The translations under genes and the position numbers were made by a program. Below, piece by piece: positions 4,266-32,000 of a DNA stretch of 32,000 nt. The DNA comes from Bermanella sp. (lineage in GTDB: Bacteria; Pseudomonadota; Gammaproteobacteria; Pseudomonadales; Oceanobacteraceae). The notes beneath the pieces were generated by a model that saw only the letters and a program-made list of their open reading frames with translations, did no database searches and was not told where the DNA came from. The first letter of the stretch is position 1, and every line of letters begins with the position of its first letter. The stretch covers positions 1 through 32,000 of the forward strand of contig JAWUXY010000119.1 in assembly GCA_034111105.1 (NCBI GenBank), read 5' to 3'.

Positions 4266-4280
4266 AGTTGTTTTCTCCTA

Positions 4281-10320: not shown

Positions 10321-10337
10321 ATTAGCCACGGGCTAAT
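10321..10337 (-). other. Short perfect hairpin (7-bp stem, 3-nt loop) between mini-enolase and aceE
   Basis: ATTAGCC-ACG-GGCTAAT at 10321-10327 / 10331-10337. Confidence 0.5.
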
Positions 10338-10380
10338 ATGAACGGTGCTTAACTTATATTGATGACGCTAGTACGCTGTA

Positions 10381-10716: not shown

Positions 10717-10731
10717 TACATTTATAACCCT

Positions 10732-10745
10732 ACTATTTTTATTTT
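10732..10745 (-). promoter_or_regulatory. A-rich leader element, one mismatch (AAAATAAAAATAGT)
   Basis: Plus strand ACTATTTTTATTTT, 16-29 nt upstream of the mini-enolase ATG (10716). Same spacing as upstream of the two amylases. Confidence 0.4.
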
Positions 10746-10771
10746 AATACTGAGATGTTAAAAATTTAACT

Positions 10772-12184
10772 TTACTGGGCTTCCTTAAAATTAGGTGATG
10801 TACTTTTTTCAACTAGGTTTTTCAACCACACCAATGTGTTAATTCTAAGCGAATAAATGGGAGCTTTAATCAATGCTTCACCACCAAGAGCAATAGCAAA
10901 TACCCACTGCACCGGTATTTGATAGATCAATCCTGATATCGCCGTTAGTGGTAAAACAATTAACCAAATCACGACCATATCCACATATAACGTAAATTTA
11001 ACGTCTCCGCCGCTTCGCAAAATAGACACACACGTAACAACATTAAATAGGCGCAACCAAAGGGTCACAGAGATTACAAAAAACATATCAACGGCTATGT
11101 TCAACACATCCCCATCCACACCTCTGTATATGTAAAACACTAAGTCGCTTAAACTTAACAAAACCAACCCATAAACAATGCAACCAAACGTTATTAAGCT
11201 TGTTAACATGAAGGCTTCTCGCTTTGCATCGGAAAATTCATTTGCCCCAAGACGACCAGAAATAATAATGGAAGCGGCACTGGTAAAGCCGATAAAAATA
11301 TCAATACTGATCCCTTCAATTGGTCCTAATAATGTAATCGCGGCTAATGCTTCTGTTCCCATTAATGCGTAAACCACCGTGAAAGAAAACACTCCTAAGC
11401 CCCAGATAAATTCATTCAACAATAGCGGTAAACTTTGCTTAACAAAGCGCTGAATTTCTTCTATTTGAAAGCTATTAATAAATTCTTTGAAATTAATTCG
11501 AATAGCCGAACGCCCTACATACACGCATGTAATCAATAAACCACATTCAATGCACTTCGCTATTGATGTGGCATAGGCTGCGCCTTCGACACCTAGTGCA
11601 GGGGCCGAAAAATGACCAAAGATAAGCACATAGTTCATAAAGGTGTTCACAATCACAGCAACAAACCCCACCATCATGGGTAATAATGTTTGGCTATTTG
11701 CTCGTAACACCGCAGAAAAAATTGACACAATGGCCATGAGCAAATGAAAAGGCGCGGTAATACTCAAAAATTGAGCGCCGATACGAATCACATTTTCGTC
11801 ATTGCTAAATAACGACATAATATTGTCAGGAAAAAAAACAGCGCCAATAGAGATAGGAATGACTAATACGAGCGAGAACGCTAAACCCAGTGACAACGTG
11901 CGCTTAACCCCTGCCATATCCCCTTTTCCAATATATTGCGCCGCTAAAATACTAGAGCCTGTGGCAAGACCAGAGATCATCAAAATCACCACAAAAAATA
12001 ATTTATTCGCCAAGCCCACTGCCGCCACTTCAGCGCTGCCTAATGAGCTCACCATAAGCACATCAATTAATGATAACGAAGACGCTAAAATTAATTGGAG
12101 CGAAATAGGAATCGCGAGTGCCAGTAGATTTTTATAAAAGCTACGGGGCGTATTTGATACAGCGTAGCGGAAACTGAGATACAT
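10772..12184 (-). CDS. MATE family efflux transporter
   Basis: About 470-aa polytopic protein with a MATE-like N-terminus (LLALAIPISLQLILASSLSLIDVLMVSSLGSAEVAAVGLANKLFF) and two-fold repeat layout. The supplied ORF starts at a GTG (12187); the adjacent ATG is at 12184. Confidence 0.88.
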   Translation of the reverse strand: MYLSFRYAVSNTPRSFYKNLLALAIPISLQLILASSLSLIDVLMVSSLGSAEVAAVGLANKLFFVVILMISGLATGSSILAAQYIGKGDMAGVKRTLSLGLAFSLVLVIPISIGAVFFPDNIMSLFSNDENVIRIGAQFLSITAPFHLLMAIVSIFSAVLRANSQTLLPMMVGFVAVIVNTFMNYVLIFGHFSAPALGVEGAAYATSIAKCIECGLLITCVYVGRSAIRINFKEFINSFQIEEIQRFVKQSLPLLLNEFIWGLGVFSFTVVYALMGTEALAAITLLGPIEGISIDIFIGFTSAASIIISGRLGANEFSDAKREAFMLTSLITFGCIVYGLVLLSLSDLVFYIYRGVDGDVLNIAVDMFFVISVTLWLRLFNVVTCVSILRSGGDVKFTLYVDMVVIWLIVLPLTAISGLIYQIPVQWVFAIALGGEALIKAPIYSLRINTLVWLKNLVEKSTSPNFKEAQ

Positions 12185-12196
12185 CACTATTACCTG

Positions 12197-12210
12197 TAAT
12201 CGATTACATT
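12197..12210. promoter_or_regulatory. Perfect palindromic LacI-family-type operator TGTAATCGATTACA
   Basis: Perfect 14-bp palindrome with central CG in the 28-bp gap between the amylosucrase stop (12216) and the MATE start. Confidence 0.7.
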
Positions 12211-12215
12211 AATTA

Positions 12216-14228: not shown

Positions 14229-14243
14229 TTTATCTCCTTTTTA

Positions 14244-15569
14244 TTAAGCATCTAGGCTCGAAAGTTGATGGGGATTTTCTGTGGCTGATTCATGTATTGC
14301 TTGGTCAAAGGCTTTTGACATTCGCTCGATACCTTGCTCTAACTGATGAGCAGTGATATTTAACGGGGGTGCAATTCTAAAGAGATGATCAAAGGTCATC
14401 ACTTTAACCCCTTGAGCCAAGCAACATTGATGTAACTTCATAGAAAATGCTTTCGTATCTTCTGGTGTGCCTTTGTTAAGTTGCAATGTCGCCATTAAAC
14501 CAGACACTCTAAAATCAGCTATCGTATTAAAGCGAGACGCTAATTCTGATATTTTTTGCCGTAATAACGGCTCCATCCCCAAAGCATTCGCAGCCAGTTT
14601 TTCATCATTGTAAATTTTAATCGTGATGTGCATTGCCGCAATCGATAATGGGTTTCCTCCAAAGGTTGTTGATGCACCGCCTCTTTCACCAAATGGAGTT
14701 GCATTCATAATTTCTTTTTTGCCCGCTAAGCACATGGCCGGAAAACCGCCGCCCAGTCCTTTAGCAAAGGCTATCAAATCAGGTTCAATTGCATATCGTT
14801 GAAATGCAAAGTCATATCCTGTGCGACCAAAACCCACACAAATTTCATCAATGAATTTTAAAATTGAATATGTGTCACACAGCCCACTAAATGCCTGCCA
14901 AAACCATTGGGAGCCTTGAAGGTTACCTCCCGCACCTAATATTGGCTCAAATATGACCGCACCAATGGATGAATCATTTGCAAAACACACTTCAATTTCA
15001 TCAAGACACCGTTGTTCATATGCCGGTTTTTGCTCATCACTCAACCCAAATTTATCTGGGAAAGGTAATTGCTTAATATCCGCAGGCGTCTCACCGGGAA
15101 ACTGACAGTGCCATAGTTGTCGAGCTGCTAATGTTTTACCATGATAAGCTTGTGAAAATGAGACGATGCTTTTTTTTGATTCCGGCAAAAACGATTTTAA
15201 AGCACGCAATCCCGCCTCGATTGTTTCACTGCCACCAGTGTAAAATTGAAAAGTATTGATATCCACCGGCGTAAGTGCATCAAGTTGACGCAGTAGTGTC
15301 AAACGTAGCGGTGTTGAATAATCATGTACATTCCATAATTCAGCTAAACGCGCTTGCATGAATTTCACGGCCACTGGATGCGCATGACCAATTGAATTAG
15401 TAAAGGTACCTGCACAAAAATCAATATAATCATTGTCATTTTTATCATATAAATACACCCCATTTCCGTAACTAAACTGATAAGGCGCACTGGCATACCC
15501 AGGCGTAATACCACTTGCCATTAGATTAAGCTCTGCATCACTTGTCAGGGTTCGCTGCTGATTAGACAT
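14244..15569 (-). CDS. Class III PLP-dependent aminotransferase (GABA/ornithine aminotransferase-like)
   Basis: Internal ATG at 15569 (MSNQQRTL...) is preceded by AAGGAG and overlaps the upstream dioxygenase stop. Motifs: FYTGGSETIEAGLRALK, AYHGKTLAAR, FIDEICVGFGRTG, FAKGLGGGFP (PLP lysine), TTFGGNPLS. Confidence 0.9.
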   Translation of the reverse strand: MSNQQRTLTSDAELNLMASGITPGYASAPYQFSYGNGVYLYDKNDNDYIDFCAGTFTNSIGHAHPVAVKFMQARLAELWNVHDYSTPLRLTLLRQLDALTPVDINTFQFYTGGSETIEAGLRALKSFLPESKKSIVSFSQAYHGKTLAARQLWHCQFPGETPADIKQLPFPDKFGLSDEQKPAYEQRCLDEIEVCFANDSSIGAVIFEPILGAGGNLQGSQWFWQAFSGLCDTYSILKFIDEICVGFGRTGYDFAFQRYAIEPDLIAFAKGLGGGFPAMCLAGKKEIMNATPFGERGGASTTFGGNPLSIAAMHITIKIYNDEKLAANALGMEPLLRQKISELASRFNTIADFRVSGLMATLQLNKGTPEDTKAFSMKLHQCCLAQGVKVMTFDHLFRIAPPLNITAHQLEQGIERMSKAFDQAIHESATENPHQLSSLDA

Positions 15570-16263
15570 GAGTGATTGACTCCTTTTTGGCGTAGTCGTA
15601 ACTGCCTGTTCTATAGTGGCCAATATCAAGCGCTTTAGAACCCACAAGATTCTTATCAATATAGCGAGTGCAATACGAGTAGCGATCTTGCTGTGATTGA
15701 TTAACTGGCACGGCGTGAAACGTTAACCCATCAACTACAACTAAATCACCTGCTTTAGGATAAAGTACAATCTCACCGTTAAGTGCATCATGGCTACCAC
15801 CTAAACCCAACTTACCTGACAAGTGGCTTTTAGGTACAAGCCTTAGCCCTCCCATCGCTTCGTTCGAGGTTTGCGGGTAAAATAAAAAATTATAAAATTT
15901 ACCCGCCCCCACTTTATAAGAAATATCTTGATGCCACGGTATACTATGGCTTAATGCACATTTATTATGCTGAATTAAACTCATGTGAAAGTACGCGTCC
16001 GGCATCATACGCTGAGCAATATAATTAAGGTCTACTGAAAACTTATCTAAAGTAGCGTTAACAAGATGCGGATTATCAAATGTATGATTAACAGCACCAT
16101 GAGACGCATAAAACTCAGGTGTGTTGTAAGCTTGTGACTCTTGTAATACCACGTATTTAATTGCATCAAATAACGCGAGTGTCGTTGCTTGATTTTTATA
16201 ATTGTGGATCACTAAATACCCTTCATTGCGAAGAAATTTCAACTTATCATCCGTAAAGTCCAT
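15562..16263 (-). CDS. Phytanoyl-CoA dioxygenase-like Fe(II)/2-oxoglutarate-dependent oxygenase
   Basis: 233 aa with a plausible HxD...H...R triad: IPWHQDISYK, FHAVPVN, RYSYCTRY. The start overlaps nothing; the stop overlaps the aminotransferase start. Confidence 0.83.
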   Translation of the reverse strand: MDFTDDKLKFLRNEGYLVIHNYKNQATTLALFDAIKYVVLQESQAYNTPEFYASHGAVNHTFDNPHLVNATLDKFSVDLNYIAQRMMPDAYFHMSLIQHNKCALSHSIPWHQDISYKVGAGKFYNFLFYPQTSNEAMGGLRLVPKSHLSGKLGLGGSHDALNGEIVLYPKAGDLVVVDGLTFHAVPVNQSQQDRYSYCTRYIDKNLVGSKALDIGHYRTGSYDYAKKESITHV

Positions 16264-16334
16264 TATGATATCCTTATCTTATTTATCGTAAGTAATTCAC
16301 ACCTTAATTCTTCTTTGACGCTTGAACGTATTAT

Positions 16335-18392
16335 TTAGCGTATTACGTTTTTTCGTTTATTATTTATGCGTTTCATTTGTGATACACGCTCATCACAATC
16401 AAAAAAATCTTCAACTGTATGACTCAGCTTGCGCCGCCAATTTGGATACTGATCTGTCGTACCTGGTAAGTTAATAGGATTTAATATGGCTAAAAAATCG
16501 TCCGGTTGAAAAACCGTAATATTCGCCTGCGAGGACGCTAAATATTCATGCGCTAACGCCACCACACTCTTACTATTTAAATCAGATATACTTGTTTCTT
16601 TTTCATTTAATCGCGTCGTTTTATTATTGATCGCCCGAACAAACGCCTGCTGAAAAGACGCTCTATTTTTACTCAAACGTTGATAGTCCGATTCACTTGG
16701 GAACAGCTTTAAACGCTTAAGAATATCTAAGTCAACGGATTGCCAATAACCAGCCATTGTAGGCAAATCATGAGTTGAAAGCGTCGCTAATGCTCGCTCT
16801 TCATAGTTTTGAGGGGACTTCAAATCTTGTTCATTATTTTCACGCTCAAATAAGAAAACTTTATACGAATAAATATCCGCATCGTTCATGGCCTTAGATA
16901 TCTCTTGTGGCACCATGCCCAAATCTTCACCGATCACCATGCATTGTTGCCTTTGACTCTCCAGCGCGAGTATCCCCATTAATTCTCGAAGTGGATAATG
17001 AATATAAGTACCATTACTTGCATCTTGACCTGCGGGCATACACCAAATGCGAAACAAGCCCATAATATGGTCAATACGTAAGGCACCGGCATGGGCCATA
17101 TTGGCTCGTATCATTTGCGTGAATGGCTCATAACCTCTCGCTTTCAGTGCACGAGGATTCATCACAGGTAACTGCCAATTCTGACCATGCAGCGCTAATT
17201 CATCCGGTGGCGCCCCCACGCTCACATCACAGTTGTAAACATCACCGTACATCCACGTTTCCGCACCATGATTATCAACACCTACAGCCAAATCACGATA
17301 CAAACCTAACGACATACCACCGCCTGTGGCCGCCGCTTGTGTCGCCGCTAATTGTTCGTCCGCTACCCATTGCATAAATTGATAAAAGCGTACCTCTTCA
17401 TGATACTCAATCAAAAATTTCTGGACCGCTTGGCTTTGATAATTTTGATATTCAGCTGGCCATTGCTGCCAGCTATTGATGGCATTATTTTTTTGATAAA
17501 AATAATGATATAACGCTTGGAATAAACAAATTAAATGATGCGACTCGCTACTATTTTTAACATAAGCATTAAACTGAGCTATTCGTTTCTGGTCTGCATG
17601 CGTAACAAATTCTTTATAGGCGACTTTAGCGGCCAAGAAAATCAATTGACTGTATTGTTGGTAATCGACTAAATCGACTGCCCGTAATTCGTGAATGAGC
17701 GTTTCATTCTCAGCATAAAACGTGGTCATAGCCTTTTCGGCTTCAGGCAGTTTTTGCCAATCAATGTACTTAGGGTCTAATAAAAGGCGGCTACTTGGGC
17801 TGTACGGGCTACAGATTCGCCCATCATCATTATATAAAAGATGTAACGGGTTCAGCCCAAGTACATTCGCACCTAACGCTGCGCCTTTCTCGGCAAACAT
17901 TTGCAAGTCTGTTAAATTACCCAAGCCCCAGTTTGACTCCGAGCGCACAGTATAAAGCTGCACCGCAAAGCCCCATATTTTATTTGTGTAAAAATCATCT
18001 GGCGTGTAGCACTTTTTAGGCGCGTAAATAACTCGACAAGCGTAAGCTTGGTTATGCCATTGCACATTAATTTGATGATAACCAAATGGCAATTCACTGG
18101 GCAAATGGATGCCGCCGCTAGTAAAGGTCAATGGTATCTTTTTTTCATTTTCTAACGTTAATACAACCTGACTTAAATCCGGATGCTCTATATTCGGCGT
18201 CACTAATAATATATCGCCTTCAATTATCACATAACAGTCTTCAAATAAGGTTTGTGGCTCGTTATTATCCGTACGATCAAGCAAGTCAACCAATGCGTGT
18301 AGCTTGTTTATTTGAATCTCTTCTATTTCATCGTTCTTATTTAGATAGCTTCTAGCTAGACCCATTTTTTTTATTTTTTCGTCTATATTCAT
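16335..18392 (-). CDS. malQ: 4-alpha-glucanotransferase (amylomaltase, GH77)
   Basis: 685 aa. Motifs: FWGFAVQLYTVRSESNWGLGNLTDLQMF, GDVYNCDVSVGAPPDELALHGQNWQLPVMNP, ALRIDHIMGLFRIWCMP, VIGEDLGMVP, LSTHDLPTMAGYW. Confidence 0.96.
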   Translation of the reverse strand: MNIDEKIKKMGLARSYLNKNDEIEEIQINKLHALVDLLDRTDNNEPQTLFEDCYVIIEGDILLVTPNIEHPDLSQVVLTLENEKKIPLTFTSGGIHLPSELPFGYHQINVQWHNQAYACRVIYAPKKCYTPDDFYTNKIWGFAVQLYTVRSESNWGLGNLTDLQMFAEKGAALGANVLGLNPLHLLYNDDGRICSPYSPSSRLLLDPKYIDWQKLPEAEKAMTTFYAENETLIHELRAVDLVDYQQYSQLIFLAAKVAYKEFVTHADQKRIAQFNAYVKNSSESHHLICLFQALYHYFYQKNNAINSWQQWPAEYQNYQSQAVQKFLIEYHEEVRFYQFMQWVADEQLAATQAAATGGGMSLGLYRDLAVGVDNHGAETWMYGDVYNCDVSVGAPPDELALHGQNWQLPVMNPRALKARGYEPFTQMIRANMAHAGALRIDHIMGLFRIWCMPAGQDASNGTYIHYPLRELMGILALESQRQQCMVIGEDLGMVPQEISKAMNDADIYSYKVFLFERENNEQDLKSPQNYEERALATLSTHDLPTMAGYWQSVDLDILKRLKLFPSESDYQRLSKNRASFQQAFVRAINNKTTRLNEKETSISDLNSKSVVALAHEYLASSQANITVFQPDDFLAILNPINLPGTTDQYPNWRRKLSHTVEDFFDCDERVSQMKRINNKRKNVIR

Positions 18393-18401
18393 AACTTACC
18401 A

Positions 18402-19511
18402 CTACAATGATTCTATTATTTTTTTTCTAATCTGATTATATTCATCATCACTCACTAGATTTTCTTCTCGTAAGACCTGTAATCTTTTAAGTCGATCTTT
18501 TATGCTCAAGTTATTTTCTTCTTTAGGTTGATCATGACCTGACACATCAAACACATTTGGTTTGGTTAATTCACCTGTGTAAACCTCATTTATTTTTGAT
18601 GGCACAACAGCACCCAGCACAGAAAAATAGCGATTAGTATCGCTATCTAATAATAAGTTATTAAGCCATTTCCTTTGATAACCATGGCTATCTAAGACAT
18701 CAACAATAGGTGACGCATCAACTCTTGCACCCAATTTTAGTCCTAGGCTGTCTGTGTTTTTACCCGGTTGTGTTAATAAAATAAAATTAGGCGCTGCAAT
18801 ATTCATTTGAAAACGCGTTTCAATATCGGCAGCACTAATGAGTACACTATAAGCCCAGTCTGTTGATAGTGTGCTGATAAAGGCATTTGGAATGGTTACG
18901 ATGACCTTATTTTTCTTAACTTTAATCTTTGTTGCGAATAAATAATGCTCTTTGATAGACGTTTCCACATCTTTTTCTATCTTGGCACTGACGTCACTAT
19001 CGAGGGTTTGATCGGAATTAGATAATGTTTCTATCTTCGTTTTAACAAGATAGTCATGGTGCATTGATTGCGCAGCATAAGGACGCGGCGTCACTATGAT
19101 GGCCTTTTCCCAAGCAAATTCATTTGCTAACAATGCTTGGCGGCCTGGCAATGTTTGTACAAAACCACTATTTGGCTTACGGTCTGTATCTATGTAAACA
19201 TCAATATTAAGAGTATAAAAATCGTTTTTTACAATTTCATTTAATGCCGTACCACCAAATCGAGATAATTTATTTTTGGGGGATGATAAAGGTTTGCGAA
19301 ATTCAAATATAAGCTGATGATTATCCGCTTGTTTTTTTACTTCAAATTTTATTAAGTCTAATTCACCCTCAACAATACTATTATTGACAGGGTATAAGAT
19401 ATCTCCCGCGCCATTATCATCGTTCGACTCATCAAGTACCGAAAAATCGGCATAACTACTTACAGACAGAAAAAGAAGGGATATGAGCGTTATTTTTTTG
19501 GGTTTTAACAT
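18402..19511 (-). CDS. Secreted glucodextranase-C/DOMON-like domain protein with C-terminal SHOCT-like segment
   Basis: Signal peptide (ITLISLLFLSVSSYA|D). DESNDDNGAGDILYPVNNSIVEGELDLIKFEVKK...VYIDTDRKPNSG...LPGRQALLANEFAWEKAIIV resembles the second paralog at 21822-22634. The C-terminus IKDRLKRLQVLREENLVSDDEYNQIRKKIIESL fits a SHOCT pattern. Confidence 0.72.
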   Translation of the reverse strand: MLKPKKITLISLLFLSVSSYADFSVLDESNDDNGAGDILYPVNNSIVEGELDLIKFEVKKQADNHQLIFEFRKPLSSPKNKLSRFGGTALNEIVKNDFYTLNIDVYIDTDRKPNSGFVQTLPGRQALLANEFAWEKAIIVTPRPYAAQSMHHDYLVKTKIETLSNSDQTLDSDVSAKIEKDVETSIKEHYLFATKIKVKKNKVIVTIPNAFISTLSTDWAYSVLISAADIETRFQMNIAAPNFILLTQPGKNTDSLGLKLGARVDASPIVDVLDSHGYQRKWLNNLLLDSDTNRYFSVLGAVVPSKINEVYTGELTKPNVFDVSGHDQPKEENNLSIKDRLKRLQVLREENLVSDDEYNQIRKKIIESL

Positions 19512-19622: not shown

Positions 19623-21674
19623 TTAGAATTGTGTTTTAACAAATACTTTCATTCGATATTGTGAATAATCAAAGTCTTCATTAGGGCTATCGATATTGCC
19701 ATTCCAACCACTGCCTGCAACCAGTGCATCAATTGCGGCTGCATTGGTGACCTCTGTTACACTACCGTCTGCATTACCTTGGTAAAACTCAGGATCAAAA
19801 GTACCGTGTATAAACTCAACTTTTGCCCCCATTTCTACACCGGAGATAATATAGTCAGCTTGCAAGCCAAAGATATTTTTACTGTGTTGACCCGTTTGGT
19901 ATTCAACCCAACCACCGCCTTGCTCCCAACCGTCAAACACAGTGGGAACGTTGTCGATGGTGCCATCCATTAAGTCAACCTGATAAACATCGTAATAGGC
20001 TTTCACGTACAAGTCTTGATGTAACTGAGCGCCAATGGTCATACCAAAAGAAGTATAATCCGCTTCACGATCGTCATGTTTGTGGTGGCTAATAATGGTT
20101 GAGGCATTGCTATAAGCATCCGCCAACGAACTGTTCGACTTTACTCGCTTATCTTCATCGCCCACAAATTTCACAAAACCAGAAAGGTCTATGCCGCCCA
20201 ATACATCCAATTGATGCTCAGCACGCAAAGCCACAATCGTTGTTGACTTATCTTGGTAAGGCGATAACACAGAGCGATAATCACCACCTACACCCCAACC
20301 AGAAACACCATCAAGCCCAGGCATTGCACAATCCGCTTTCACATCACCGCCACAGGCCTGTTCATTATCATTATAATCAAGCAAGGTTAGCTCTAATGAT
20401 AAGTCCACATCTGCTATGGTATAGCGAGGAATAACCGTTAAACCTTTCCAACCGATAACACTGTAAGCTTGCGATTCATCGAAGTCAGTGAATTCGTTAT
20501 CCGCATTAACCGCAACAACTTGTTGTTGTGTTCCACGCCAACCGCCATAACCAACATTCGCCGTACCCGCTGCTTTGCTATTATAGTTCGGCCTCGACCA
20601 GCCCCATGCACCGTCATAGCCTTCTGTCAGCAATACATCGGCTTCACGACGAGATGCCATCATTGAGAAATAGTCTTTACCGATATCAAAGTACTGAGCC
20701 GAGATGGCTAACTCATCAACACCAAAGTCGCTTAGTTCAACATTTAATAGTAAGGCGGTATCGTTCACGCTTTTACTTGGTGTAGGTGTCCAACGCGGCT
20801 CTGTTACATTTTCATCAATATCAAATGTTGAGTTGTATACTGCAATGTTTGTACTTAAATAATCCAGTCCATCCCAAGCCAGTTTTAATCCTGTCACTGA
20901 ATTAGCAAAACGCGTTTCTAATCTTCGACCATTGGTTGCATCTGTATCATTGGTATCAAGCTCTTGGTCTTGAACATATTCATGAATCAAGGTTACATTT
21001 AAGTCATCTGATATATTGCTTTTTAACTGCAAACCATAAGCTGCATCTTGGGCTTGTAAGTCGCCAGTATTAAATTGAGGGCCTGCCCACAAACTAGGCA
21101 AAGAAATACGCGCAAAATCATAGCGCAACGCACTATTAAATAATGCACCTTGCGCTAAAATACCGGACCCATTGTCGCGGTCAATGTAACGCATTTTACC
21201 GATGGTCATGGCGTCGAACACACCCCAATCATTTGAACCAATCGTGACAGAATCAATCCACTCGTACCCAGGGGTTATACGAGTATAAATACCTCGCAGT
21301 TTCACGTATTGCGCTTCTTTGGGATTACTTTCACCAGTACACGTAACTTGACCACCGCCAGCAGGTGCTTGGCAATCACCGCCAAAGCCACCAAAGTTAG
21401 ACCAGTAATTTGAGTCAAAGCGAGATTTTAAGCGCCCACCAACCTCCACTTTTTCAGATACCTTTGCTTCAAACATCAATTCGAATTCAGTGCCCTGACC
21501 AATGTCACCGCTACCGAATTCTGAATTATTATATAAACCAGTTTGAGAATTTTGGTTACCATCTAAAAATTTGTTATAGACAGAACCATACCAACGTATA
21601 TCACCTGCCACTGCCATTTGGGAAGCAAGTCCCAACAGCACAGCGGACGCCAGTACCTTTTTTTTAAATTCCAT
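19623..21674 (-). CDS. Large outer-membrane beta-barrel protein (putative maltodextrin porin, not classical LamB)
   Basis: Start MEFKKKVLASAVLLGLASQMAVAGDIRWYGSVYNKF at 21674 with signal peptide. Alternating-residue strands, aromatic/acidic-rich loops, terminal Phe (MKVFVKTQF). Confidence 0.78.
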   Translation of the reverse strand: MEFKKKVLASAVLLGLASQMAVAGDIRWYGSVYNKFLDGNQNSQTGLYNNSEFGSGDIGQGTEFELMFEAKVSEKVEVGGRLKSRFDSNYWSNFGGFGGDCQAPAGGGQVTCTGESNPKEAQYVKLRGIYTRITPGYEWIDSVTIGSNDWGVFDAMTIGKMRYIDRDNGSGILAQGALFNSALRYDFARISLPSLWAGPQFNTGDLQAQDAAYGLQLKSNISDDLNVTLIHEYVQDQELDTNDTDATNGRRLETRFANSVTGLKLAWDGLDYLSTNIAVYNSTFDIDENVTEPRWTPTPSKSVNDTALLLNVELSDFGVDELAISAQYFDIGKDYFSMMASRREADVLLTEGYDGAWGWSRPNYNSKAAGTANVGYGGWRGTQQQVVAVNADNEFTDFDESQAYSVIGWKGLTVIPRYTIADVDLSLELTLLDYNDNEQACGGDVKADCAMPGLDGVSGWGVGGDYRSVLSPYQDKSTTIVALRAEHQLDVLGGIDLSGFVKFVGDEDKRVKSNSSLADAYSNASTIISHHKHDDREADYTSFGMTIGAQLHQDLYVKAYYDVYQVDLMDGTIDNVPTVFDGWEQGGGWVEYQTGQHSKNIFGLQADYIISGVEMGAKVEFIHGTFDPEFYQGNADGSVTEVTNAAAIDALVAGSGWNGNIDSPNEDFDYSQYRMKVFVKTQF

Positions 21675-21750
21675 AATAAAGACCTTTTGCAATTTAATTT
21701 TCTTATTTTTATGTCTAATTATTCTGCTTAAAGCTAGATTAAATACACAA

Positions 21751-21764
21751 TGCAATCGTTTACA
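21751..21764. promoter_or_regulatory. Candidate LacI-family operator TGCAATCGTTTACA
   Basis: Matches the TGTAATCGATTACA family in inverted/degenerate form, about 77-90 nt upstream of the outer-membrane protein start (21674). Confidence 0.62.
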
Positions 21765-21821: not shown

Positions 21822-22634
21822 TTAATTCCTTAACATGCTTAATTCAGATAGTTTTACAACGTCACCATCTTCTGAGCATTCAAATTTCAACATTTCGATT
21901 TGCGCTGCGATTTCAGACTTATCGCCTTTACCACTACCCGCAAGTACATCTAAAACATGGGGATCGCAGTCTGTATCCGCTTGACCACCAAAGCGATGCT
22001 GACCTTCGTATTCATTAACCTTACGAGTTAATAGATCAGTTTTAGCCGGGAAACCTTCGTTTGATTGAACAACCACTTGATAGCCCCATTTCGCTGGATC
22101 CCCTTCACCTAGGTCTACAAGATTCACCTTACCCGTAATTTTATTGCCTTTGCCTTTAGTACGGCTAGGTACAACAATGTCGTTTAATATATCCGCGGCC
22201 TTCACTTGCGCTTCAGAGATAACACGTGATTGTTTTTGTGGTGACAGAATCACAACTTTGTCCCATTCGTGGCCTGGGGCAAATGTCACATTTGTGCCGG
22301 GCACACCTGCGGTATGTCCGCCTGCTTTCGTATCAATATAGACAAAAATCATCTGGATAGAAAAACCGCTCCCCATTCCCCATCCATCTTCCAATGTGGT
22401 ATTAAATTCAGTTGTGAATGTGGCTTTTTTTGAATCACTTTTTATTTTCAATTTTTTTAAATCAAAGGACCCGGGTTTATAAATGCCATCCGTTGGATAT
22501 ACCACATGGCCTGCACCAATGTCGTCTCCCTTAGGATCATTAAATTCAATGGAGCCAGCAGCAGCTGTTACACTTAAAGCAAGCGTACTCACAGCGGTTA
22601 AGGCTTTAAGCATTGTTTTTATTTTAATTTTCAT
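21822..22634 (-). CDS. Secreted glucodextranase-C/DOMON-like domain protein
   Basis: Signal peptide (MLKALTAVSTLALSVTAAAG). Followed by SIEFNDPKGDDIGAGHVVYPTDGIYKPGSFDLKKLKIKS...MIFVYIDTKAGGHTAGVPGTNVTFAPGHEWDKVVILSP. Confidence 0.78.
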   Translation of the reverse strand: MKIKIKTMLKALTAVSTLALSVTAAAGSIEFNDPKGDDIGAGHVVYPTDGIYKPGSFDLKKLKIKSDSKKATFTTEFNTTLEDGWGMGSGFSIQMIFVYIDTKAGGHTAGVPGTNVTFAPGHEWDKVVILSPQKQSRVISEAQVKAADILNDIVVPSRTKGKGNKITGKVNLVDLGEGDPAKWGYQVVVQSNEGFPAKTDLLTRKVNEYEGQHRFGGQADTDCDPHVLDVLAGSGKGDKSEIAAQIEMLKFECSEDGDVVKLSELSMLRN

Positions 22635-23597: not shown

Positions 23598-25520
23598 TTA
23601 CGAATTCGCATCCGTCACTTTGCTCACCTTATTTTGAAACACACCGTAAACCAGTAAGATCATGAAAATCACCACTGAATAAGCCGCTGCGTAAGCATAT
23701 TGCATTTTTTCAAAACCAATTTTATAAGCCTGTGTAATCAATATTTCATTTGCACCGGCAGGCTCACCTGCTGAAACCAAATAAATCACGTTAAACATAT
23801 TGAATGTCCATACTACCGACAGGATGACGGCGGGAATAAGTGTCGGCTTTAACGACGGCAAGGTAATGTACTTAAATTGTTGCCAACGATTAGCACCATC
23901 AATTTTAGCCGCTTCATACATATCAGTAGAGATTGACTGCAATCCGCCCAAAATAACCACCATCATAAAAGGAAAACCTAACCACACATTGGTGGTTAAA
24001 CCGGTTAAAAATGATGTGAAAACACTGCCAAACCAATCAATAGGTTCAAATCCAAAAATTTGAATTACCTGATTAATCACACCAAATTGTTGATGAAACA
24101 TGCCCTTCCAAACAAGCGCGGTAATATAATTAGGAATGGCCCAAGGTAAAATAAGCGCAACCCTGAAAAACCAACGGAACTTTATGCGCGAATCATTCAA
24201 TGCCAAAGCTAATAACAAGCCCAAACCCACTGCAAACACCACGTTTGATACGGTCCAACAAATGGTTATGAATAGCGTCCAATAAAAGTTTTCATAGTTA
24301 ATAATTGTTTGACCATCTAATTCTTTAAATAAATTAAAATCGCCTAAAATAGCCAAATAATTATCAAAACCCACAAAGCGCTCAGAGAACGAAAGGCTTT
24401 CGTTAAACATCGTGGTATCTGTAAAAGACAGTATAAAACCATAGCTAAACGGAAAAAATACCAATACCAACATACCCAACATGGCTGGCAATACGTACAT
24501 ATACGCCTGACGATTCTCTCTAAATGCATCACGGGTTTTGGCTGCTGAACCGGATACAAAAAAGATTAATAATAATGAAGAAAGTAAAATATAAACAAAG
24601 AGCTTAGCCATGAGCGCCTGCGTGTTCGATGCCATCCATTGTAAATAAAACGGCTGCGAGACCTCATCTAATCGCTGCATATCAAGACCGTAGCGATTAA
24701 TCCATAACATATCCGTATTAGCCAATACCAGCTCAATACTCTTTAATAATTCGGTAATATTATTGATAGCGTCAGATTGTTCAATTTGAAAATTGTGAAC
24801 TAACCTAACGCACAAAAGCACAGCCACACATAAGAATAGAAACAGGTAAACACTCGTATTTAGTGTGTTTTTACTAACAGATATGTATTTAAAATTCACA
24901 TTACTCAATGTCTTTTTATTAAAAAAAACTAAGCAGGCTAATGCGAGAACCAGCAATATAAACCAATCAATTACATAGTAAGGTGACACCGCTTTAGGTT
25001 CTGTTAGAACATCAACCTGCAACACTCCCTTAAATCGATCATTAACCAAATATGGATAAACCACCCTCAAAATACTGTTTGATGCTGTATCAAGCCATTG
25101 ATAGCTAACAAGTGGATTTAAAAATTGACCGCCTTTAGTTTTTCCATATGCCGATTTTATTTTTTTAGCTTCATCAAAAAATGACTTTTGATCTTTAGGT
25201 AATGAAAACGGAAAACTCTGGTGTTTATCTTCATCTTGCGTTGAGGCTATCACCTTAGCGCCGCGTAATTTCAATACCTTAATATCTGCAATACGCTCGT
25301 TTGATGCTTTCAAATTTAATGCGGCATCCTGCAGTGAAAGTGAATCACTGCCCGCCATTTTATGTGCCGTAAAACCAGATAAGATTACGGCTTTATCCAC
25401 TTCACTTTGTTGATATAAACGAGAGACGCTGTCGTTCAAACCATGCAAGAAAGCAAAGTAAGCGAGTGTGAATATCACAATAAAACTAAAAATACGGTTA
25501 TTAACCACTTGAGCCTTCAT
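23598..25520 (-). CDS. malF: Maltose/maltodextrin ABC transporter permease MalF with ~335-aa N-terminal extension
   Basis: EAA loop DMYEAAKIDGANRWQQFKYITLPSLKPTLIP. The canonical permease core begins near residue 335 (ENRQAYMYVLPAMLGML). Confidence 0.93.
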   Translation of the reverse strand: MKAQVVNNRIFSFIVIFTLAYFAFLHGLNDSVSRLYQQSEVDKAVILSGFTAHKMAGSDSLSLQDAALNLKASNERIADIKVLKLRGAKVIASTQDEDKHQSFPFSLPKDQKSFFDEAKKIKSAYGKTKGGQFLNPLVSYQWLDTASNSILRVVYPYLVNDRFKGVLQVDVLTEPKAVSPYYVIDWFILLVLALACLVFFNKKTLSNVNFKYISVSKNTLNTSVYLFLFLCVAVLLCVRLVHNFQIEQSDAINNITELLKSIELVLANTDMLWINRYGLDMQRLDEVSQPFYLQWMASNTQALMAKLFVYILLSSLLLIFFVSGSAAKTRDAFRENRQAYMYVLPAMLGMLVLVFFPFSYGFILSFTDTTMFNESLSFSERFVGFDNYLAILGDFNLFKELDGQTIINYENFYWTLFITICWTVSNVVFAVGLGLLLALALNDSRIKFRWFFRVALILPWAIPNYITALVWKGMFHQQFGVINQVIQIFGFEPIDWFGSVFTSFLTGLTTNVWLGFPFMMVVILGGLQSISTDMYEAAKIDGANRWQQFKYITLPSLKPTLIPAVILSVVWTFNMFNVIYLVSAGEPAGANEILITQAYKIGFEKMQYAYAAAYSVVIFMILLVYGVFQNKVSKVTDANS

Positions 25521-27929: not shown

Positions 27930-29525
27930 TCAACTATTTTTAGGCTTTGCAATATAAAATTGCACAGACATATTTTTTATTTTTAGATCAGATTCAAAAT
28001 CAGCGTTTTGACCTGCGTTAAGTGTGTCTAGATTAAACTTATACCATGATTTATTTTTCACAGAATCTGGAAGATCAAGCGACAATACGGCCTCTTTTTC
28101 GCTTCGATTAACAACCACAATAATGTGATCATCTTTTTCTTTATGATTACGCATGAATGCCATCTGATCACCTTTGGCGTACAGTAGCGTATACGTACCT
28201 TCGTGCATCGCAGGGTGCTGGCGTCTTAATTTTATAAGGGCTTGGTAATATGATCTAAGAGCTTCGTCACGGGTTATGCCAGAACCCGGCTTAACATCGT
28301 GCTCTCCCCAAGGCATATCCATTCGATTATGAGGCCATGCTTTGCCTTCACGCCCCACTTCTTCGCCATAATAAATCACGGGCATTCCTAAACTGCTCAT
28401 TTGCATGGCAACGCAAATTTTAAATTTATCTTTATCACTACCAAGATCTGCCAGAGCCATATTGACATCATGTGTCGATAAATAGTGAGCCATAAAATAA
28501 CCATCACGAACGTCATGACGATTCTGTAAATACTTAGAAAATGCAATCGCACGACCGCGGCCGTTAACAAAGGCTTGGCATGAACCTGTGAACGAAAAAT
28601 CAAACCCTGAGTCCGTTTCATCTTCTTTGAACCATTCATCCATTTGCGTGTGTGTTGCACCCCAAACTTCAGACAACAAGAAAAAATCATCACCCAACTC
28701 TTTACGAGTACGTGCACGATGTTCTTTCCAAAATGGGTGATCAATATGTTTAAACGTATCTAAGCGAAAACCATCTATGCCAGATCGTTTCGCCAGCGCG
28801 ATGGAATGTTCAATCAAATAGTCTTGTACAGGCGGAAGCTCGGTTTTCAGATCTGGCAGACCACCTACTTGACAGATGATGACATCAACGTCACATGACG
28901 TGTTTCGAGTGCGGAGCCATTTTTTGCGTTCACTGTCGCCATAGAAATGCTGCGCAGAATAACCAGCATGGTTATAGACCACATCTAATAGCACTTTCAT
29001 ATTACGTTGATGTGCGGCATTAACCAGTGCTTTTAAATCGGCCTCTGTACCAAATTGCGGTTCTATTTGATAGAAGTCGTCAATCCAATAGCCATGAAAA
29101 CCCCAGTGTTGAAAACCATCTTTGGTCTTACCACTTGGGTCAGCGGCATACAAACCAAAATCAATTTGTTTATTAATCGGTGTTAACCAAATGACATTAG
29201 CACCTAAGCTGGCAATCTCATCTATTTGTGCGGTGAGTCCTTTTAAATCACCGCCATGATAACCACCAGGATTTGAACGCTCTACCCTTGCATTATTAGT
29301 TGCATCACCATCAGCAAAGCGATCTAGCATCACAAAATAAATAATCGCATCATTCCAACTTTCCATTGGCTTAAGCACAATTGGGGAACTAACGTTTTCA
29401 GCTGGCTCAAAATTGACACAACCACTGACCAATGCAGTAATCACTATCGTTATTAATACCGAACAAATCATTGAATTCAGTTTAAAATTAAAATTCTGGC
29501 CAAGGTGTCCTTTACTTCTGCACAT
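27930..29525 (-). CDS. Lipoprotein GH13 alpha-amylase
   Basis: Lipobox-like ITALVSGC. GH13 motifs: DAIIYFVMLDRFADGD, VLLDVVYNHAGY, IDGFRLDTFKHID, LLSEVWGATH, HYLSTHDV, MPVIYYGEEVG. Confidence 0.93.
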   Translation of the reverse strand: MCRSKGHLGQNFNFKLNSMICSVLITIVITALVSGCVNFEPAENVSSPIVLKPMESWNDAIIYFVMLDRFADGDATNNARVERSNPGGYHGGDLKGLTAQIDEIASLGANVIWLTPINKQIDFGLYAADPSGKTKDGFQHWGFHGYWIDDFYQIEPQFGTEADLKALVNAAHQRNMKVLLDVVYNHAGYSAQHFYGDSERKKWLRTRNTSCDVDVIICQVGGLPDLKTELPPVQDYLIEHSIALAKRSGIDGFRLDTFKHIDHPFWKEHRARTRKELGDDFFLLSEVWGATHTQMDEWFKEDETDSGFDFSFTGSCQAFVNGRGRAIAFSKYLQNRHDVRDGYFMAHYLSTHDVNMALADLGSDKDKFKICVAMQMSSLGMPVIYYGEEVGREGKAWPHNRMDMPWGEHDVKPGSGITRDEALRSYYQALIKLRRQHPAMHEGTYTLLYAKGDQMAFMRNHKEKDDHIIVVVNRSEKEAVLSLDLPDSVKNKSWYKFNLDTLNAGQNADFESDLKIKNMSVQFYIAKPKNS

Positions 29526-29540
29526 ATGATTGTGTCCATT

Positions 29541-29554
29541 ATTATTTTTATTTT
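29541..29554 (-). promoter_or_regulatory. A-rich leader element AAAATAAAAATAAT upstream of the lipoprotein amylase
   Basis: Exact 14-mer (plus strand ATTATTTTTATTTT), 16-29 nt upstream of the ATG at 29525. Confidence 0.5.
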
Positions 29555-29609
29555 AAAACGCTTGATGACTCACCATTCTTTTGATGGCTAGTTTACCTTA
29601 CTCAATAAA

Positions 29610-29623
29610 TGCAATCGATTACA
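29610..29623. promoter_or_regulatory. Candidate LacI-family operator TGCAATCGATTACA
   Basis: One mismatch from the perfect palindrome, about 85 nt upstream of the first gene of the amylase-malK-malE-malF-malG run. Confidence 0.68.
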
Positions 29624-29683
29624 TAAAATAAATATTACGTGCTATGAATCAAAATTGCGAGTACTAAGTCTCTCTTTTTAATC

Positions 29684-29720
29684 AATTAAGGCATAAAAAG
29701 TTCTACTTTATGCCTTAATT
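29684..29720 (-). terminator. Strong inverted repeat immediately downstream of the PHK-like gene, probable terminator
   Basis: AATTAAGGCATAAA / TTTATGCCTTAATT, 14-bp perfect arms, 9-nt loop, 4 nt after the stop at 29724. The T-tract is weak. Confidence 0.65.
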
Positions 29721-29723
29721 GCT

Positions 29724-32000
29724 TTATACCGTCAGACTTAGGAATGCCTCTACAACCTTTTGCGCCACAATATGGGGCGGCGCCTGAAATATCGCTTTTT
29801 GTGCATCAATACTATGGCGATGATATACCGATGCATGAGCAGGATGCTCAACCAACCAATGACCTTTTACACAGTGGCTAAGCAGTACATCCACCACCAA
29901 ATAATCATCCACATTTATTTCTGGGTTTTGTTTGAAGTACGCCGCTAACGCCAGCAACGACTCAATGCACAAATGTCGATACTCAGGTATTTTAATTTCA
30001 CTAATTAAGCCATCAACATACAATTCAAAGGTTTTTTCGCCTGCGGTCATTTGCCCCATAACCCATTGCGAGTCAATACGATTACGACGCTCAAATTTAT
30101 CGCCAATCACGACCCCTTTACTGCGCTGTAATAAAATCCAAATATCTAAATAAAACGTCTCAGGCATGTGCGTTAATGTCCCTAACTGCTTACGCCAATG
30201 TTGCCAATTACTAAAACCTTGCGGCAAATTCGAGTCAATAAAATGAACCGTCTTTTCAGATGCCTCACCAATGAGATGAATACTCTCCACCTCAACAATA
30301 TGATGAACACTTTGGTCATAATTTTTTAGCATGTTTTTTAGTTTAGTAGCGATATCGCTGGGTGCCATATCACTCAATTCATCAAAGGCTAAGTCCTGTG
30401 TTTCATGCTGCTCATCACTCATCTCACTGGTGAGCATCAACAGTAAATCTGTGGTACGAAGCGCAGCAACATTTTTAAACAATAAGGGCTCGCTTCTAAT
30501 AATCGTAGCCAGATGGATTAAAATCTCCTGGATAAGCGATTTCTCTTTAGGGTCTTGACCACAACATGCTGCAATTTCGTGGTACAACGCATCGCTTTCC
30601 ATTGAGTCGGCAATGACTTTGTAGCCACTGTAACCACGTCCGAGCACTAAATGCTTTTGACGAGCCAGAATTTCACTGAGCGCACTGCTTAATTCTTGAT
30701 GATAAATATCAAGCAAGCCCGCGCACTGACGCACCAATGACCATAAGCGCAACTGGCAAGATTTTGCATACACTTCTTTTATTAAGTCTTTTAACGACAC
30801 ATCTTGATTATTGATCGTCATGACTTGTTGCGATGTGAACCGCCTTTCGAGCAATGACAACAATAATACTTGTTCATATAAATTTTCACTTTGCGATAAT
30901 TTCACCATCATCTGTGCTAATGAAACATCTTGTGACCATATTGTGAGCGCACTTACATCTATGCTTACTGTTTTTTCATGCTTGAAGGCTAATAAGCCAT
31001 TATCAAGAGCGTCATAACCAGGATGATATTGAATCAAATCAAATGGCTCTAAACCGTTTATGACTTCTGTATTTATTTTTGGTAACAACTCAACTAGATT
31101 ACCTAACCGAACATGCCCCTGTGATGTAGATAAATCCTTAAACAACGCCAATACATTTTCTTTAGTGTTGGCGCTAAGCATTGACTGATCCACATACATG
31201 GTCATTACAGGGTCTTTTTCACTTTGCCAATGGCGGCTTAAATAATTGGCCTCTGACAGAATGCGCTGTGCGAATAAATTATTATCCAGCGACATATAAA
31301 ACCGAGATTTTTGATATTGGAAATTAGGCAAGAATAAATATTTCTGATCATTAATTTCATACAGTCTTGAAGTTGCCATACTGCGGAGCACTCGCATTGG
31401 GCGACCTGTTAAACCTAAACGTTTATTACTGCCTAATCTTGAGTACACATTTAAAAGCTGCTCAGTCGCGCATAACGTTATATCGGTTAATTCGCTTTCA
31501 AGATTACTGGTAATGCCTTGCTTGTTTAGTATATTTTGCACCGAGGCATCACTGGCAATCAAGCAAATATGAACCGATCGAGCTTGCACTGAACGAGTTC
31601 GTTTTGATAAGTTTTGAGGATCTAATTGTTCAGGTGATATTAATTTTTCATGCAGTAAACGCGCCAAATAAAATAATGATTGCGCCCAGACAAGTGGTAA
31701 ATTGTTATTGGCTGTGCGTTTTTGGCTGTGCGGAGTTTGTTTTTCCGCCTCTACGTTTTCAAGTGGCACATAATACAGCTCTGGCAACAGCATTTGGCCG
31801 TTTTGCTCTACCGCTAGAGATTCTAACTTTTTATAGTACTCATCGGCTAAAATAAGGTTTTGGTTAAACAAACTGTTCAAATACAAATATGTGTAAAATA
31901 ATGGCCATTCCGACTCAATGTCTTTAAAGTTTTTAAGCTCATCATCTTTATAGTAAAAGCGAGAGTGATCTTCTAGTACAGATTGATGGCCATCTAACAG
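29724..32000 (-). CDS. Phosphorylase kinase alpha/beta regulatory subunit-like protein (GH15-like family), N-terminus outside the window
   Basis: The frame stays open beyond the listed TTG start at 31886 to the window edge (LLDGHQSVLEDHSRFYYKDDELKNFKDIESEWPLFYTYLYLNSLF). PHK-like blocks: LLPELYYVPLENVEAEKQTPHS, LPLVWAQSLFYLARLL, LGLTGRPMRVLRSMATSRLY, FYMSLDNNLFAQRIL, GYSGYKVI...ALYHEIAACCGQD, FYLDIWILLQRSKGVVIGD, MTAGEKTFELYVDGLISEIKIPEYRHLCIESLLAL. Confidence 0.88.
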   Translation of the reverse strand: MLDGHQSVLEDHSRFYYKDDELKNFKDIESEWPLFYTYLYLNSLFNQNLILADEYYKKLESLAVEQNGQMLLPELYYVPLENVEAEKQTPHSQKRTANNNLPLVWAQSLFYLARLLHEKLISPEQLDPQNLSKRTRSVQARSVHICLIASDASVQNILNKQGITSNLESELTDITLCATEQLLNVYSRLGSNKRLGLTGRPMRVLRSMATSRLYEINDQKYLFLPNFQYQKSRFYMSLDNNLFAQRILSEANYLSRHWQSEKDPVMTMYVDQSMLSANTKENVLALFKDLSTSQGHVRLGNLVELLPKINTEVINGLEPFDLIQYHPGYDALDNGLLAFKHEKTVSIDVSALTIWSQDVSLAQMMVKLSQSENLYEQVLLLSLLERRFTSQQVMTINNQDVSLKDLIKEVYAKSCQLRLWSLVRQCAGLLDIYHQELSSALSEILARQKHLVLGRGYSGYKVIADSMESDALYHEIAACCGQDPKEKSLIQEILIHLATIIRSEPLLFKNVAALRTTDLLLMLTSEMSDEQHETQDLAFDELSDMAPSDIATKLKNMLKNYDQSVHHIVEVESIHLIGEASEKTVHFIDSNLPQGFSNWQHWRKQLGTLTHMPETFYLDIWILLQRSKGVVIGDKFERRNRIDSQWVMGQMTAGEKTFELYVDGLISEIKIPEYRHLCIESLLALAAYFKQNPEINVDDYLVVDVLLSHCVKGHWLVEHPAHASVYHRHSIDAQKAIFQAPPHIVAQKVVEAFLSLTV

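Follow-up and report, generated by a model that had tools for sequence, protein, structure and literature searches.

In this study, a 32,000-nt stretch of DNA from Bermanella sp. (assembly GCA_034111105.1, contig JAWUXY010000119.1, positions 1 to 32,000; hereafter the window) was analyzed for a gene cut by its right edge, which lies on the minus strand next to a maltodextrin importer. It encodes a true bacterial homolog of alpha and beta, the large regulatory subunits of animal phosphorylase kinase (PhK). Its product is most probably a soluble cytoplasmic glucose-releasing alpha-glucan hydrolase that would work alone in bacteria, a reading to which we give a probability of about 0.55. It rests on a set of glycoside hydrolase family 15 (GH15) residues that is strictly conserved here and decayed in beta, on the lack of a signal peptide, and on linkage to glucokinase (glk) and Entner-Doudoroff (ED) genes. 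Neighboring genes for glycogen synthesis or maltodextrin uptake, and an operator shared in this locus with the mal genes, lead to the same reading.

The gene is present in the window as an unbroken ORF of 758 codons ending in TAA. Its 5' part (~906 nt, ~302 codons) lies outside the window and the full protein is expected to have ~1060 aa; the internal TTG start given for the fragment in the ORF list is an artefact of the window edge, the true start being beyond it. When the fragment was run with phmmer against all PDB chains, the sole hits were human PHKA1 (8jfk_M, E 8.6e-80, three collinear stretches over query residues 1-687) and human PHKB (8jfk_B, E 1.8e-59). The Pfam domain KPBB_C (PF19292, the phosphorylase b kinase C-terminal domain) matches residues 530-757 over profile positions 2-231 of 238 (E 1.8e-69; 233.9 bits, cut-off 27), and Glyco_hydro_15 (PF00723) is recognized with E 1.8e-14 (53.9 bits against a cut-off of 22) from the rear third of the domain, the only part that the fragment contains. 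No model of NCBIfam matches the fragment protein. When a profile of the bacterial family was searched against the PDB, its matches were confined to PhK, with E = 0 (1086 bits) for alpha and E 1e-262 for beta, and no canonical GH15/glucoamylase chain was found at E <= 0.01. An ordinary glucoamylase was ruled out, as a phmmer search with the first domain (D1) only, at E <= 10, gave PhK alpha/beta and noise.

Near full-length homology to PHKA/PHKB had been proposed in a first-pass annotation of the sequence, and phmmer, the family profile, and KPBB_C all bear it out. Every motif block named there is present in the HMMER alignment, for instance LLDGHQSVLEDHSRFYYKDDELKNFKDIESEWPLFYTYL, LGLTGRPMRVLRSMATSRLY, and LIQEILIHLATIIRSEPLLF opposite PHKA1 segments, FYMSLDNN opposite FYLALDNK, and the C-terminal FY..W.LL / MT.GE..F / PEYR.L..E, so the resemblance is real and far beyond chance. 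Neither of the findings that would have spoken against it, similarity to ordinary glucoamylases only with no C-terminal PhK match or an unrelated upstream architecture, was encountered: the profile matches only PhK alpha/beta, and the upstream part, as read in a strain of 99% identity and in full-length orthologs of 83% identity, encodes the beginning of this GH15-like D1.

The domain names D1-D5 follow the cryo-EM study of human PhK (PMC10978961). An AlphaFold2 model was built for P0001, an 83%-identical ortholog, on an alignment of 65 sequences (A1), with a mean predicted local distance difference test score (pLDDT) of 84.9 and a predicted template modeling score (pTM) of 0.85. In a Foldseek search of the PDB with this model, human PhK alpha and beta came first (E 3e-62 to 2e-54, template modeling score (TM) 0.68-0.76, 1026-1103 columns), with best E values of 3e-62 for alpha and 1e-61 for beta and a sequence identity of 30-35% (34% to alpha and 30% to beta over ~1000 aligned residues); the model thus overlays both human subunits, as the first-pass annotation had suggested examining. 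GH15 enzymes follow after a large gap and match D1 only, led by the Kribbella isomaltose glucohydrolase structures 5z3a and 7c24 (TMt 0.73-0.74, prob 1.00), and D1 also superposes on the Aspergillus glucoamylases 1gah, 1dog, and 6frv. Since the Foldseek and profile matches span the whole protein, the complete D1-D5 layout of human PhK is present, collinear over its full length with animal PHKA1/2 and PHKB (PDB 8jfk, 8jfl, 8z5m-t) and including KPBB_C. The barrel of D1 begins at about residue 10 in the orthologs, and its helices stop near residue 430 in the model. Fragment and P0001 are equal in length from residue 303 on, so that fragment residue n corresponds to P0001 residue n + 302.

Two regions of PHKA1 (~609-709 and ~971-1051) and the N-terminal extension of PHKB (~35 residues; PHKB 1-44) are unmatched in the bacterial protein, and its C-terminus, ...AFLSLTV, has no CaaX box. 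The alignment therefore confirms that the long regulatory inserts of the animal proteins are missing. In animals, the alpha inserts and the beta N-terminal extension carry regulatory phosphorylation sites. CaaX farnesylation has been reported for human alpha and beta (PMC10978961). Ortholog N-termini (MSENKK...LDAFY...) lead directly into the first barrel helix, and no signal peptide was found on them.

Glu185 and Glu371 of PHKA1 are named as the two catalytic glutamates (PMC10978961), and they align with E191 and E376 of P0001, respectively. The predicted general base, in the motif LLPELY of the fragment, is invariant in 65/65 aligned bacterial proteins and is Lys in human beta. The predicted general acid E191 lies beyond the window and was read in the 99%-identical P0003. 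Conservation was also counted at 100 loci, 20 of them genomic or looked up and 80 metagenomic, where both glutamates, which the first-pass annotation had proposed to check, are invariant (100/100). They belong to a set of eleven invariant residues (W52, R54, D55, W136, Q140, D142, W190, E191, R301, W334, and E376 in P0001 numbering), which none of the 63-65 A1 sequences covering a given position lacks and which are kept at 100/100 loci, including the Catenovulum/Gayadomonas branch with just 30-32% identity overall. The eleven are presumably the GH15 catalytic/-1 subsite set, an assignment that follows PMC10978961 for the two Glu and the conserved regions of GH15 for the other nine. The active-site loop DGHQSVLEDHSRFYY contains further invariant A1 columns, D305, G306, H307, Q308, E312, R316, and Y319. 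All eleven residues are kept in human alpha, and six are changed in human beta (K, Q, Y, N, F, K).

A second site is conserved together with the first. ADP in human beta sits between D1, D2, and D4, with its diphosphate held by Arg211, Tyr213, Arg214, and Arg274 (PMC10978961). The corresponding bacterial residues R180, Y182, R183, and R243 are kept at 90, 100, 97, and 97 of the 100 loci, respectively; the residues of human alpha here are A, Y, K, and H. Unlike animal PhK, a single bacterial protein thus unites the alpha-type active site and the beta-type basic pocket. The fungal homologs and a protist keep all eleven active-site residues, and 11/11 are combined with an RYRR pocket in Blastocladiella, Parasitella, Synchytrium, and Ramicandelaber (P0143, P0147, P0148, and P0156). 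These early-diverging fungal and protist proteins have both sites in common with the bacterial ones but are longer (1322-1686 aa), with inserts, and their alignments are split into 3-4 stretches. Animal alpha orthologs keep the active site but not the pocket, and human beta has the pocket residues only. The simplest reading of this distribution suggests that the ancestor had a sugar site and an ADP pocket, which the animal alpha/beta duplication would have divided.

Gene neighborhoods were compared by unsupervised clustering of neighbors, 81 of the loci having both flanks. Glucokinase is by far the commonest neighbor family and lies within 5 kb (<=5 kb) in 31/81 of these. It is directly adjacent to the PhK-like gene (gh15) in 29 loci, always on the same strand, and downstream of it in 27. 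Five of nine lineages defined at 60% identity display the link: a large cluster including Methylomonas and Methylococcaceae loci (25/28), Campylobacterota (3/3), Reinekea (2/2), Bermanella (3/3, with edd adjacent), and L047. The order in Reinekea blandensis is glk-gh15-malQ-malK. The genes gh15 and glk overlap by 4 bp in Methylomonas and by 4-8 bp in L019 and L004. In L004, from a Campylobacterota metagenome-assembled genome (MAG; positions 2604-6120 and 9107-18027), glgA-glgB and two unrelated ORFs are followed by gh15-glk-zwf-pgl-edd-eda, an operon with overlapping stops and starts in which gh15 is the first gene; L003 carries the same operon. Glucose is the probable product in view of the adjacency to glucokinase and of these operons. 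Such positions in catabolic operons imply an enzyme rather than a kinase regulator, and no gamma kinase or calmodulin partner as in animal PhK is found in the neighborhood of the bacterial gene. Taken together, the genes at L004 would lead by hydrolysis from glycogen all the way to pyruvate, in a lineage generally regarded as chemolithoautotrophic. In the methanotroph Methylotuvimicrobium, glycogen is a source of free glucose that enters the ED pathway via Glk (PMC8062543); that study credits the glucose to MalQ with GlgP and GlgX, and the PhK-like gene is unmentioned.

In the window, the gene is followed on the same strand by a GH13 amylase, MalK, MalE, MalF, MalG, and a Glucodextran_C protein, then by a 710-aa porin-like protein, a second Glucodextran_C protein, MalQ, and further GH13 enzymes. 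Pfam searches of the window ORFs thus agree with the amylase, MalQ, and MalEFGK context described at first. No Pkinase domain was found in any window ORF of >= 200 aa, in keeping with the earlier remark that no protein kinase is visible, and no kinase gene was found in 10 kb upstream at the orthologous loci, which leaves room for a partner encoded elsewhere. The upstream order in loci of 99% and 82-83% identity is gap-pyk-zwf-pgl-glk-eda, a LacI-family regulator, (SDR), edd, and then the PhK-like gene, and in the 99%-identical strain edd ends 55 bp before it without a hairpin between. A LacI-type palindromic operator, TGTAATCGATTGCA, is found ahead of the amylase-malKEFG operon and is conserved in the ortholog alignment. 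It has eight matches in the window (<=2 mismatches, both strands) against 0.47 expected, a number reached in 0/100 shuffles. The form TGTAATCG(A/T)TTGCA stands ahead of edd and of the amylase-malK operon, likewise ahead of the porin-like gene and of the secreted amylase, and the same motif (TGTAATCGTTTGCA) lies ~100 bp upstream of edd in both orthologous loci, L012 and L013. The LacI-family regulator of the upstream ED cluster (L012 6233-7225) has CytR as its best partial match, below the cut-off. Because the operator is shared with edd and the 55-bp gap contains no hairpin, the gene seems to form one transcription unit with edd, within the LacI-type regulon that also covers the genes for starch and maltodextrin.

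A stem-loop closely follows the stop codon of the PhK-like gene, with arms conserved in orthologous loci at 82-99% identity. It was spotted by eye and by folding. A consensus promoter/terminator scan of 29300-29900 found nothing, and it missed the hairpin because a U-tract is absent. The hairpin is probably a transcript end or stabiliser that separates the PhK-like gene from the amylase-malK operon.

We propose that the (alpha/alpha)6 barrel of D1 would act as an inverting exo-alpha-glucosidase of the glucoamylase type, which takes glucose off imported maltodextrins here and off stored glycogen in other species such as methanotrophs and Campylobacterota. The glucose would then enter the ED pathway through glucokinase. 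In Bermanella, the gene is probably co-transcribed with edd and would fall under a LacI-family regulon common to the amylases and the MalEFGK importer. In animals, D2-D5 carry the gamma kinase and assemble the hexadecamer; here they would probably make substrate or oligomer contacts, and the basic pocket among D1, D2, and D4 may give a response to the energy state of the cell.

Known systems were compared with this proposal. GH15 members (Aspergillus 1gah and 6frv; Kribbella flavida 5z3a and 7c24; glucodextranase; GH15 trehalases) have the (alpha/alpha)6 barrel, PF00723, and both glutamates in common with the bacterial protein, and the Trp, Arg, and Asp residues of their -1 subsite are present in it; a role in glucose release from alpha-glucosides is predicted for it as well; identity in structural alignments is just 12-16%. 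Canonical bacterial glucoamylases possess an N-terminal beta-sandwich before the barrel and no PhK-type C-terminal domains. The present protein lacks this beta-sandwich, as well as the starch-binding domain of fungal enzymes, and has ~630 residues of PhK-type D2-D5 instead. E. coli MalZ has the role predicted here, the release of cytoplasmic glucose from imported maltodextrins beside MalQ, after MalEFGK and ahead of glucokinase, but there is no homology, MalZ being a retaining GH13 enzyme that acts on the reducing end, and the analogy would be one of role only. Compared with these characterised systems, the bacterial protein is a stand-alone, kinase-less, and probably catalytic version of the PhK alpha/beta architecture.

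Several points weigh against a glucose-releasing hydrolase acting on alpha-glucans. With its active site intact, human alpha still showed no activity on maltose, isomaltose, or glycogen (PMC10978961), so the same eleven residues do not prove hydrolysis of these substrates in bacteria, and no enzyme assay of a bacterial member was found in the literature searched. The residue after the catalytic acid is Arg (WER), so that the +1 subsite may differ from that of classical glucoamylases, which have WEE. The model is least confident (pLDDT < 50) at residues 191-199 and 300-318, which are invariant active-site loops flanking the catalytic acid and the DGHQ..E..R..Y loop (300-318 corresponds to about 31950-32000 of the window and beyond); they may be mobile lids that become ordered only upon ligand binding. 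The N-terminal 302 residues of the window gene were taken from the 99%-identical strain and lie outside the window. In the Bermanella/HK3 clade, which includes the window gene, R180 is Pro, so that three of the four pocket residues are kept. Glucokinase is absent (0/55) from the largest group of loci, an apparently cyanobacterial cluster that contains Calothrix, and neither glucokinase nor a glucan context is found in this cluster, in Lentisphaera, or in Catenovulum. Divergent upstream WecG-like glycosyltransferase genes, found in 14 loci, and histidine kinases in the cyanobacterial contexts gave no functional lead.

The inactivity of human alpha with the same residues led us to retain two alternatives. 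In the first, the protein is a glucose-releasing GH15 hydrolase for another alpha-glucoside, such as trehalose, the alpha-1,6 stubs of limit dextrins, or isomalto- or kojibiose/nigerose-type disaccharides. The glucokinase linkage suits any substrate that yields glucose, and the best structural match of D1 besides PhK is the isomaltose glucohydrolase, not a glucoamylase. The inactivity of human alpha and the WER motif also speak for a different substrate. For trehalose in particular, GH15 includes cytoplasmic trehalases, and the window encodes a GH13 enzyme that resembles TreS but scores well under the cut-off of that family. In glk mutants of methanotrophs, trehalose builds up together with glucose, and no trehalose-degrading enzyme is named there (PMC8062543). 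Against this stand the partners of the gene, which here and in Reinekea are MalQ, MalK/E/F/G, and amylases under a common operator and in L004 are glgA and glgB, and the finding that no trehalose-specific gene was linked to it in any lineage examined. We consider this alternative unlikely.

The second alternative, quite unlikely in our estimation, is that of a non-catalytic sensor or scaffold that binds alpha-glucans or oligosaccharides, perhaps also a nucleotide, and regulates a partner such as glucokinase, a phosphorylase, or a transporter. Biochemical studies of the family are limited to human alpha and beta, both of them regulatory subunits in which no hydrolase activity was detected (PMC10978961). 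D2-D5, which are protein-contact domains in PhK, are fully kept along with the beta-type pocket residues, and translational coupling through the overlaps with glk would be in keeping with a complex of fixed stoichiometry. In Lentisphaera profundi and L. marina (L016 8865-9809 and L002 7973-8914), a gene for a Hanks-type Ser/Thr kinase of 314 aa even lies ~190 bp upstream on the same strand, with a convergent PPK2 gene downstream. This kinase was rejected as a PhK-gamma-like partner, since its best PDB matches are PknB, StkP, and PknA; the pairing was seen in these two close species only. Against the sensor, the eleven catalytic and -1 residues, six of which are lost in the non-catalytic beta, are invariant across lineages of ~30% identity, the window and the upstream flank hold no kinase, and the first position in gh15-glk-zwf-pgl-edd-eda is typical of a pathway enzyme. 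The first-pass annotation had left a GH15 enzyme and a non-catalytic sensor side by side; the enzyme is now favored on account of the invariant eleven residues and the glucokinase/ED linkage in several lineages, with the sensor kept as the lesser rival.

Of the 8000 candidates scored in a search covering 5.8 billion proteins, more than 2000 were homologs at E <= 1e-10; at E <= 1e-30, there are 283 clusters of 50% identity. They occur across Gammaproteobacteria, Campylobacterota, Cyanobacteria, and Lentisphaerae. Nearly all of the top matches listed have 1020-1124 aa with PF00723 and PF19292, apart from a few partial or truncated entries. Databases name them 'glycoside hydrolase family 15 protein' (NCBI), 'phosphorylase kinase alpha/beta subunit' (IMG), or 'Phosphorylase kinase alphabeta' (UniRef), and in Pfam KPBB_C is already precomputed on the family, as is PF00723 on all full-length homologs. 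With a family of this size and the label already in the databases, the bare homology is no discovery. The window gene is an ordinary member of the bacterial family, and its value lies in an unusually explicit context of ED genes and the mal regulon.

The nearest relative is P0003 of 'Pseudomonas sp. HK3' (99% identical), followed by the 1060-aa full-length orthologs P0001 and P0002 (82-83%); a Bermanella MAG carries the same gene at 82% identity. HK3 is labelled Pseudomonas, and its nearest relative in the genome set is the Bermanella MAG. In the HK3 copy (L012, GCA_052920985.1, 10001-13181), one extra C (GGACCTT vs GGACTT) breaks the frame into parts of 840 and 227 aa. As glk of the same assembly (L012 4485-5526) is likewise split by a frameshift, an assembly or sequencing error seems to be the cause. 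A pseudogene was thus rejected, the window copy being intact over its 758 codons.

In D1, P0001 is 53% identical to human alpha and 46% to human beta, which are 48% identical to each other. Bacterial D1 sequences have a median identity of 57.5% to human alpha D1 (maximum 62.7%), which overlaps the lower part of the range among bacteria (median 66.7%), and those of early-diverging fungi and a protist are 65-69% identical to bacterial D1 of the cyanobacterial type. Those homologs of the 50%-cluster library that are long and align in several stretches come from eukaryotes, namely early-diverging fungi, animals, Corallochytrium, and a protist. Neighbor-joining on D1 did not place the eukaryotes in one group; the trees are distorted by the long beta branch and too crude for rooting, and they did not resolve the relationship of bacteria and eukaryotes, the direction of a transfer, or vertical descent. 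Of the 'ancestral compact form' supposed in the first-pass annotation, the compactness stands with the absent inserts, and ancestry is only plausible. That the gene came recently from a eukaryote, or that it is a functionless relic in decay, is very unlikely, for although the identity of D1 is as high as 63% with human alpha and 68-69% with the protist and early-diverging fungi, and the HK3 copy is frameshifted, the numerous bacterial homologs are spread over the groups named above and lie in conserved operons, and the split in HK3 comes down to a single base in an assembly whose glk is also broken.

The positions of the features in the window are collected in Table 1. Scans of the neighboring proteins with NCBIfam gave nothing above the curated cut-offs. 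The 710-aa protein has a signal peptide and the C-terminal ...VKTQF but no Pfam or NCBIfam match, and is probably an outer-membrane beta-barrel. Two secreted Glucodextran_C proteins (SLH-like binding) flank it inside the mal cluster, an arrangement conserved in the HK3 and Bermanella loci, and the three may form an uncharacterised outer-membrane maltodextrin-capture system. The MalF-like permease has 640 aa with the transport domain only at 431-633, and thus an unusually long N-terminal extension of ~400 aa. A PhyH-type dioxygenase and a class-III aminotransferase are an odd pair for a maltodextrin cluster. A 111-aa ORF consists of the first 80 residues of Enolase_N and a short piece of Enolase_C, and looks like a truncated or rearranged enolase remnant.

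Table 1. Positions of the PhK-like gene, its parts, and other features in the window
Feature	Position	Strand	Description and basis
PhK-alpha/beta-like GH15 gene, 3' part	29724..32000	-	2277 nt = 758 codons + TAA (stop 29724-29726), 5' end cut by right edge of window; ORF/translation, PHKA1/PHKB matches, Pfam
D1, C-terminal third, GH15-like (alpha/alpha)6 barrel	31611..32000	-	Fragment 1-130 = P0001 303-432; aligns with PHKA1 297-427
Invariant active-site loop	31950..31994	-	Fragment 3-17 = P0001 305-319
Predicted GH15 general base Glu74 (GAG)	31779..31781	-	Glu376 in P0001; aligned to PHKA1 Glu371
D2, mixed alpha/beta	30987..31589	-	~P0001 440-640; model; collinear with PHKA1 to 608; limits estimated
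D3, helical bundle	30702..30959	-	~P0001 650-735; model helices 651-731; aligns with PHKA1 ~710-810 past alpha-specific insert; limits estimated
D4	30282..30692	-	~P0001 739-875; model; aligns with PHKA1 ~812-970; limits estimated
KPBB_C region, end of D4 and whole D5	29730..30413	-	Fragment 530-757; aligns with PHKA1 1052-1136 and PHKB 921-1029
Perfect 16-bp stem-loop	29683..29721	-	Begins 3 nt past stop; RNA fold -20.9 kcal/mol, z -5.0, 0/200 shuffles as stable
LacI-type operator	29610..29623	.	Ahead of amylase-malKEFG operon
Operator site	21751-21764		Ahead of porin-like gene
Operator site	12195-12208		Between 670-aa GH13 gene and MatE gene
Operator site, weaker	7832-7845		
Operator site	4656-4669		Ahead of 1211-aa secreted amylase
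MalF-like permease	23598-25520		640 aa
Glucodextran_C protein	21822-22634		Secreted
710-aa protein	19623-21755		Porin-like
Glucodextran_C protein	18402-19511		Secreted
PhyH-type dioxygenase (233 aa) and class-III aminotransferase (471 aa)	14244-16263		Between malQ and cytoplasmic GH13 gene
Enolase-like 111-aa ORF	10381-10716		Between aceE and MatE gene

Phosphorylase kinase was the first protein kinase discovered. A 2024 cryo-EM study of the human enzyme found the alpha active site intact and without activity, and left the role of the glucoamylase-like domains unexplained (PMC10978961). Our full-text literature searches found no study of a bacterial PhK-alpha/beta-like protein, and the first 300,000 characters of a 2024 review of prokaryotic alpha-glucan enzymes report GH15 glucoamylase for archaea only, with phosphorylase kinase unmentioned in that part. 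A bolder scenario, tentative and unlikely, would make the bacterial protein the ancestral active state of the PhK alpha/beta lineage, an ADP-responsive cytosolic alpha-glucan glucohydrolase that may dock glucokinase; animal duplication would then have assigned the sugar site to alpha and the nucleotide site to beta, with D2-D5 re-used as a kinase scaffold.

The bacterial ortholog offers a simple single-protein system in which to determine what is cleaved, by which chemistry, and what the ADP pocket does, with results transferable to human PHKA/PHKB and relevant to the PHKA/PHKB variants of glycogen-storage disease. If the bolder scenario holds, knowing the bacterial substrate would show what is bound or cleaved at the 'silent' active site of human PHKA. 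A hydrolytic route of glycogen and maltodextrin breakdown would be added to bacterial metabolism. The family would also document how an enzyme was co-opted as a kinase scaffold, its two ancestral sites being shared out between paralogs.

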